From NCBI RefSeq assembly GCF_055900595.2, contig NZ_CM148325.1: a DNA stretch of 64,000 nucleotides; one strand, 5' to 3'. Every line of letters starts with the position of its first letter. Within the stretch, counting starts at the first letter, position 1. The position numbers and the translations under genes were made by a program. The notes below the pieces were generated by a model, which saw only the letters and a list, made by a program, of their open reading frames with translations, was not told the DNA's origin and searched no databases. Shown one piece after another: positions 59,253 to 61,222 of this stretch.

Positions 59253-60453
59253 ACTCGATATTTTACACGACTCTCTTTACCAATTCTGCCCCGAATTACA
59301 CTTAAAACGACTCAACAGCTTAACGTTGGCTTGCCACGCCTTACTTGACTGTAAAACTCTCACTCTTACCGAACTTGGCCGTAACCTGCCAACCAAAGCG
59401 AGAACAAAACATAACATCAAACGAATCGACCGATTGTTAGGTAATCGTCACCTCCACAAAGAGCGACTCGCTGTATACCGTTGGCATGCTAGCTTTATCT
59501 GTTCGGGCAATACGATGCCCATTGTACTTGTTGACTGGTCTGATATCCGTGAGCAAAAACGGCTTATGGTATTGCGAGCTTCAGTCGCACTACACGGTCG
59601 TTCTGTTACTCTTTATGAGAAAGCGTTCCCGCTTTCAGAGCAATGTTCAAAGAAAGCTCATGACCAATTTCTAGCCGACCTTGCGAGCATTCTACCGAGT
59701 AACACCACACCGCTCATTGTCAGTGATGCTGGCTTTAAAGTGCCATGGTATAAATCCGTTGAGAAGCTGGGTTGGTACTGGTTAAGTCGAGTAAGAGGAA
59801 AAGTACAATATGCAGACCTAGGAGCGGAAAACTGGAAACCTATCAGCAACTTACATGATATGTCATCTAGTCACTCAAAGACTTTAGGCTATAAGAGGCT
59901 GACTAAAAGCAATCCAATCTCATGCCAAATTCTATTGTATAAATCTCGCTCTAAAGGCCGAAAAAATCAGCGCTCGACACGGACTCATTGTCACCACCCG
60001 TCACCTAAAATCTACTCAGCGTCGGCAAAGGAGCCATGGATTCTAGCAACTAACTTACCTGTTGAAATTCGAACACCCAAACAACTTGTTAATATCTATT
60101 CGAAGCGAATGCAGATTGAAGAAACCTTCCGAGACTTGAAAAGTCCTGCCTACGGACTAGGCCTACGCCATAGCCGAACGAGCAGCTCAGAGCGTTTTGA
60201 TATCATGCTGCTAATCGCCCTGATGCTTCAACTAACATGTTGGCTTGCGGGCGTTCATGCTCAGAAACAAGGTTGGGACAAGCACTTCCAGGCTAACACA
60301 GTCAGAAATCGAAACGTACTCTCAACAGTTCGCTTAGGCATGGAAGTTTTGCGGCATTCTGGCTACACAATAACAAGGGAAGACTCACTCGTGGCTGCAA
60401 CCCTGCTTACTCAAAATCTATTCACACATGGTTACGTTTTGGGGAAATTATGA
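59245..60453 (+). CDS. IS10 transposase
   Basis: 402 aa, [34 protein letters not shown]...; full length. Confidence 0.95.
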
Positions 60454-60466
60454 GGGGATCTCTCAG

Positions 60467-60475
60467 CGCCAGGCC
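60467..60475. repeat. IS10 target-site duplication, right copy (CGCCAGGCC)
   Basis: Identical to 59129..59137. Confidence 0.9.
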
Positions 60476-61222
60476 ACGATTTACGGGTTCTACTCCAGCA
60501 ACGCAGCGGGAAGCGCCAGGTTTGCAGACTCTGGGCAACTTTACCGCCCAGTACGCCTGCGCCCAAAATGCCGATGGTAAAATCTTCCCGATGATATTCA
60601 GGCAGCGGTTGCCAATGTGAATTATTTTGCTGGGTGCGATAATCGTCAAAACGTCGAAACCAATGCAGCACCTGACTAACGGCATATTCCTGCATTTGCT
60701 CGCCCATACCGGTATCTTCCAGGCGAAAAAGTGGAACAGAAGGTTTCAGCATATCAGGGTGAGCCTGTAACTTGCTCAAAATAGAATCAACACCCGCCCC
60801 GAGTGCAAACACCGCTTTAAGATCGCGCCCAGCCAGCATTTCAACAGGAGGATGCCAGACTAAAGCATAATCGGCTGATTCATTGTCTCCGCTTTTCCAT
60901 GCTCTGACTCTTGCCTGAGGAATCGCTTTGCGCAGTGCCTCAATCCACCATTGGGTATCGAACGTTGGGTGATAAAAGATGATGTCCATACTGACTCCCG
61001 AAAAGCGTTGCGCGAAATTTATTCGCACTTATCGTTATGATCTACAAAGGCCACCAGCATAACAAATCCGTGGTCGGTGGCAAAAAAAGCAGATTTCGCT
61101 TATTAAAACTGCATATTGATTGAAGTTTGAATAAACGCGCGATTTTTTTAAAAAGTTTGTTGACCTCAGGTCATGATTTCCCTAAATTAGCGCCCGTTCC
61201 AGCAAGACAGGAACGACAATTT

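Follow-up and report, generated by a model that had tools for sequence, protein, structure and literature searches.

Background

GhrA (YcdW) of Escherichia coli is the NADPH-dependent glyoxylate/hydroxypyruvate reductase A, and belongs to the GHRA subfamily of D-2-hydroxyacid dehydrogenases, which is represented in the PDB by entries 6p35, 7jqh and 3kbo. The NADPH fingerprint of this subfamily, [ST]R[ST]X[RK], sits in the betaB-alphaD loop, and a catalytic role is described for an Arg-Glu-His triad (PMC6303947). The insertion sequence IS10 (ISVsa5, IS4 family) is found in simple insertions and as the flanking elements of Tn10; its target consensus is quoted in PMC4574204 as NGCTNAGCN, with the relaxed form NPuCNN-NGPyN. 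Some transcripts from the IS10 promoter pOUT reach neighbouring genes, at approximately 10% of PlacUV (Simons 1983, as quoted in PMC9330008), and IS10 activation of acrEF is listed in the same source (PMC9330008).

The closest described insertion is ycdU::ISVsa5 in strain AJ6, a PGAP-style pseudogene in the csg-ycd-pga region that consists of two partial coding sequences flagged incomplete. The locus described here, from a 64,000-nucleotide stretch of DNA (the window), has an element of the same IS family in the same region, but in another target gene, ghrA, and in another strain, as an independent event. The kind of event is already known, an ordinary IS-interrupted pseudogene of the type that PGAP flags as "incomplete"; the literature search yielded no paper that links IS10 with ghrA.

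A complete IS10 element lies within ghrA

A complete IS10 element (ISVsa5-type) of exactly 1,329 bp occupies positions 59138..60466 (+ strand) of the window, with its outside end at 59138 and its inside end at 60466, and lies inside ghrA, which is encoded on the minus strand. The terminal sequences are CTGATGAATCCCC at the outside end and, in the minus-strand reading, CTGAGAGATCCCC at the inside end. The outside-end sequence CTGATGAATCCCCTAATGATTTT and the inside-end sequence CTGAGAGATCCCCTCATAATTTCCCC were found in inverted orientation with 0 mismatches, exactly 1,329 bp apart, each as a single occurrence in the 64-kb window against a chance expectation of 0. As only one copy of each end is present in the window, the element is a solo IS, and a composite Tn10 was rejected. 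The transposase gene (59245..60453, +) is intact and encodes 402 aa, with a Pfam DDE_Tnp_1 match (E = 1.5e-24) and a score of 402 bits against the NCBIfam IS4 family transposase model (cut-off 152). The antisense RNA RNA-OUT, which marks pOUT, is present at full length at 59183..59252 (−) (Rfam RF00240, 97.3 bits, gathering score 41; model positions 1-70 of 70) and overlaps the transposase ATG at 59245, and a Dam site, GATC, is found at 60457..60460 within the inside-end stretch. The copy is 98.8-99.9% identical to RefSeq-annotated "IS4-like element ISVsa5 family" elements. In its 1,329-bp length, terminal sequences, 402-aa DDE transposase, RNA-OUT opposite the transposase start, inside-end GATC and 9-bp target duplication it is like IS10/ISVsa5 simple insertions and the Tn10 flanking elements; it differs from the Tn10 elements in being solo, and from other annotated E. 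coli copies by 0.1-1.2% of bases. All defining features of IS10 that can be tested from sequence are present in this copy.

A perfect 9-bp direct repeat, CGCCAGGCC, flanks IS10 on both sides. The repeat check and comparison with the empty site place the left copy of this target-site duplication at 59129..59137 and the right copy at 60467..60475; strains AST85 and AJ6 have an uninterrupted ghrA site with one copy of CGCCAGGCC. The repeat matches the relaxed target NPuCNN-NGPyN and 4 of the 6 specified positions of NGCTNAGCN, the consensus being that quoted in PMC4574204. Removal of IS10 and one repeat copy in silico restored a 312-aa GhrA, which aligned with PDB 6p35 along its entire length of 312 residues with few substitutions (E = 2.8e-212) and reached 683.3 bits with the GhrA equivalog model of NCBIfam (cut-off 403). 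The insertion splits ghrA into a 5′ part of 174 codons and a 3′ part of 138 codons. The rebuilt gene has the NADPH fingerprint and the Arg-Glu-His triad of E. coli GhrA, whereas the gene in the window is split after residue 174, and neither piece combines the cofactor motif with the catalytic residues.

On insertion, IS10 cut a 9-bp target matching the relaxed consensus, duplicated this target and divided ghrA in two. A simple insertion is consistent with everything in the sequence, and there is little doubt that a recent, simple transposition of IS10 into ghrA codon 175, private to the strain, created this null allele. The loss of ghrA can be tolerated because GhrA has been reported to be dispensable (PMC6303947).

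Distribution of the insertion among relatives

A search of 5,426 complete E. coli genomes found IS10 at this ghrA site in none of them. The sole near-full match to the window among these genomes is AJ6, in which IS10 lies not in ghrA but 1.5 kb away; this ISVsa5/IS10 copy (segment 5640..6968) splits ycdU, is an independent insertion and is 98.8% identical to the IS10 of the window. Seven human isolates (AST85, E500002, E200086, 100117, 100248, E400634 and E600003) match 24.9 kb of the window at 100.0% identity, as rounded by BLAST, and ghrA is intact in all seven, with a complete coding sequence annotated in AST85. In the flanks of the insertion, identity to the closest complete relatives is 99.95-100%; these have one copy of the target and an intact ghrA of 312 aa.

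Scans for the exact junctions in GTDB representative genomes and JGI metagenomes gave no matches, and the exact 185-aa and 198-aa products (see below) are not on record in a collection of 15 billion proteins. The exact 138-aa open reading frame (ORF) of the C-terminal part is on record on three contigs, one of which has the same IS10 junction. The other two were rejected as IS insertions; one has a scaffold N-gap (780..790) and the other a 1-bp deletion (~540), both of which are probably assembly artefacts. The contig that shares the junction, a 36-kb contig (contig 25) of a Logan assembly of sequencing run SRR27886137, starts 30 bp inside the outside end of IS10, and positions 1..3455 of this independently assembled short-read contig correspond to window positions 59167..55713 at 100% identity. 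A contig break 30 bp into the element means that IS10 is multi-copy in the SRR27886137 genome, which is probably that of the same strain or a clone-mate. On these comparisons the insertion is a recent event confined to one lineage.

The seven nearest complete relatives also have an IS200/IS605-family transposase element of approximately 710 bp between yceK and mdoH (10156..10614 in the relative segment), and the window is without it (~43,960-44,130). With this element absent and IS10 present in ghrA, the source strain is separated from the seven relatives by at least two IS events.

The chimeric open reading frame is expected to encode 185 residues

The initial annotation described an ORF in which the N-terminal half of ghrA is fused to the inside end of IS10 and then stops. 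Both the ORF (60432..61028, −) and its junction were re-derived and agree with this description. As a mechanical ORF it has 198 codons, from a GTG at 61028 to a TAA at 60434..60432. The native ghrA 5′ portion (60467..60989, −) contributes 174 codons plus 1 base and includes the GxGxxG motif (residues 143-148) and SRTRK (residues 166-170), and the inside-end bases of IS10 (60432..60466, −) are read as an 11-residue tail and the stop. The minus-strand junction is TCG TGG CCT GGC G/CT GAG AGA TCC CCT CAT AAT TTC CCC AAA ACG TAA, where the slash marks the boundary between ghrA and IS10. The GhrA residues end at Gly174, and the next codon, GCT (Ala), is made up of a G from ghrA and CT from IS10 and takes the place of Val175 (GTG). 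The count of 11 IS10-encoded residues given previously is essentially right, but the first of them is encoded by this hybrid codon.

The likeliest chimeric coding sequence is shorter, with 185 codons (60432..60989, −), and starts at the ATG at 60989, which is preceded by a Shine-Dalgarno sequence, GGGAG (60999..60995), with a 5-nt spacer. Its product would consist of GhrA residues 1-174, the hybrid Ala codon and 10 purely IS10-encoded codons. In RefSeq, ghrA of AST85 is 939 bp long (312 codons and a stop), and the PDB GhrA constructs all begin at MDIIF. The GTG at 61028 was rejected as a start, there being no Shine-Dalgarno sequence over the 13 extra codons and the RefSeq and PDB starts both lying at MDIIF. 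PDB 7jqh also has 13 additional residues, but these are a tag and do not align with those of the ORF. The expected product is therefore likely to be 185 aa and not 198 aa, the length in the initial annotation, which depends on the unlikely GTG start.

The flank at 60467..61420 is 100% identical to that of strain AST85, so that any promoter and ribosome-binding site of ghrA are still in place. As far as the sequence goes, the earlier statement that ghrA keeps its expression signals is right. A consensus promoter scan upstream of ghrA found no site above chance (3 sites compared to 3.8 expected in shuffled sequences), and a sigma-70-like site at 61083..61056 was no better than chance. The upstream region, 233 bp and intact, is bounded by serX, a tRNA-Ser(GGA) gene that is divergent from ghrA (61223..61310, +).

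The ghrA frame continues for 11 codons into the inside end of IS10, where it meets the TAA. The three phases into this end give tails of 14, 11 and 1 codons before a stop. Because stops occur within 1-14 codons in all three phases, the tail carries no information, and any gene hit in this orientation is closed almost at once. The ORF owes its length to a real gene, which supplies 174 of its codons, and not to chance; only the tail has a length set by chance. We infer that the insertion produced the chimeric ORF automatically, as a by-product, and that it is not a new protein of interest.

The fragment lacks the catalytic residues and most of the NAD(P)-binding domain of GhrA

In the rebuilt protein the Pfam NAD-binding domain (PF02826) spans residues 105-277. 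The fragment retains only profile positions 2-71 of 178, with approximately 60% of the NAD(P)-binding domain gone, and a complete Rossmann domain (PF02826) is not found in the chimeric ORF. The fragment reaches 386.7 bits with the GhrA equivalog model of NCBIfam over profile positions 1-176 of 312, which is under the cut-off of 403. The motif GAGVLG (GxGxxG, residues 143-148) and the NADPH fingerprint SRTRK (166-170) are both kept, and the break falls 4 residues past SRTRK, a motif located in the betaB-alphaD loop (PMC6303947), so that just the first two strands of the Rossmann sheet (the first beta-alpha-beta unit) are left. A "truncated Rossmann-domain fragment", as this product had been called, overstates how much of the domain there is.

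The N-terminal piece of the substrate-binding domain is present in the fragment and its C-terminal part is missing. The catalytic triad, R227, E256 and H275, lies entirely beyond residue 174, in the separated 3′ remnant. The chimeric ORF thus lacks three of the four defining features of GhrA (a score above the equivalog cut-off, a full Rossmann domain and the triad) and has the fourth, the cofactor motifs. Without the catalytic triad the fragment cannot be an enzyme, and the allele is null. If translated, the chimeric polypeptide would most likely be misfolded and degraded. The suggestion that the fragment could be expressed is plausible, and would be of little consequence.

The outside end of IS10 faces the ghrA remnant, ycdX and ycdY

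The 3′ remnant of ghrA (58713..59137, −) comprises codons 175-312 together with the duplicated 9 bp, and holds Arg227, Glu256 and His275. Its 138-aa ORF begins with the GTG of the native Val175 codon (59129), for which there is no convincing Shine-Dalgarno sequence. The next gene downstream is ycdX (57921..58658, −), which encodes a PHP-domain zinc phosphatase, followed by ycdY (57343..57897, −), which encodes a chaperone of the TorD/DmsD family. The pOUT promoter, as marked by RNA-OUT, shares its strand with the ghrA remnant, ycdX and ycdY and is directed outward over the outside end; a scan of the minus strand from 59137 to 58600 revealed no terminator-like site. This outward promoter, the C-terminal remnant and the target-site duplication are all additions to the initial annotation.

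A transcript from the ghrA promoter would enter IS10 antisense to the transposase gene and would be untranslated after 60432. An untranslated transcript is a typical substrate for Rho-dependent polarity, and this antisense transcript would probably be stopped by Rho, making the insertion polar. In turn, part of the transcription that starts at pOUT could continue through the ghrA 3′ remnant to ycdX-ycdY. Expression and instability of the fragment, Rho polarity and read-through from pOUT to ycdXY are all expectations that follow from what is established for IS10 and for 2-hydroxyacid dehydrogenases. Expression of ycdXY may be altered by polarity or by pOUT as a purely geometric possibility, co-transcription of ghrA with ycdXY being putative.

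Alternative explanations

An assembly artefact, in which a repeat was misplaced into ghrA, might be considered since IS10 is multi-copy in many E. coli genomes and the matching short-read contig, which ends 30 bp into IS10, indicates that the element is repeated in that genome too. A misjoin, however, would not yield a perfect 9-bp duplication, the length typical of IS10, at both exact termini of the element, and the outside-end junction is matched base for base in the independent assembly, which together make an artefact extremely improbable. Hardly more credible is the proposal that the chimeric protein of 185 aa (or 198 aa) is produced as a stable protein with its own function, such as that of a regulator or an NADPH-binding mini-protein. 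In its favour, the native upstream region and Shine-Dalgarno sequence are intact, GxGxxG and the NADPH-specificity loop are kept, and a normal in-frame stop means that there would be no tmRNA tagging; yet only 70 of the 178 NAD-binding positions are left, the substrate-binding domain is without its C-terminal portion, the catalytic triad is missing, and the sequence of the tail depends simply on the phase in which the IS10 end is read. The absence of the exact protein from the 15-billion-sequence collection and of the allele from the 5,426 genomes means, moreover, that there is no sign of selective retention.

It is also conceivable that the insertion was selected, either for the loss of GhrA or because IS10 replaces control of ycdX-ycdY by the ghrA promoter with constitutive transcription from pOUT. 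The ycdX-ycdY genes have been linked to swarming, pOUT and RNA-OUT point towards the ghrA 3′ remnant and these two genes with no terminator-like site in between, and IS10 is a documented activator of adjacent genes, such as acrEF (PMC9330008). In Salmonella DT204 the outside end likewise faces co-oriented downstream genes, but in cases of the acrEF type the IS precedes a silent operon and the phenotype was selected, whereas activation of ycdXY here is purely geometric. The allele is seen in a single lineage (0 of 5,426 complete genomes and one matching sequencing run), there is no recurrence at the locus, the only other nearby IS10 being that of AJ6 in ycdU, and the target agrees with the ordinary site preference of IS10. 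Selection for either advantage is accordingly judged unlikely, and persistence of the GhrA(1-174) fragment as an NADPH-binding polypeptide would be a weaker proposition still. Simple insertion of IS10, with inactivation of ghrA, is the preferred explanation.

Implications for annotation and for the source strain

The correct label for this locus is a ghrA pseudogene interrupted by IS10 and not a new 198-aa protein, and it is of little importance beyond annotation. Being absent from the seven nearest relatives and from all 5,426 complete genomes searched, ghrA::IS10 is usable as a strain marker, and IS10 has been recently active in this lineage. No GhrA activity is predicted for the source strain, which would depend on other enzymes, for example GhrB.

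The region between serX and dgcT

A K-12-type block between serX and dgcT, consisting of the RtT sRNA, ycdU, a ymdE remnant and IS3, is absent from the window (61311..61413) and from AST85, in both of which dgcT ends approximately 100 bp from serX; segment 4374..8860 of AJ6 served as the comparison for this block. The same interval has approximately 181 extra bp in some close relatives (E500002), where the 954-bp query aligned in two pieces over 1,135 bp. The dgcT (ycdT) gene itself (61414..62871, −) has a mechanical ORF of 485 aa starting from a TTG, compared to 455 aa (1,368 bp) in the RefSeq annotation of AST85, and is another gene whose length is overstated by the longest ORF.
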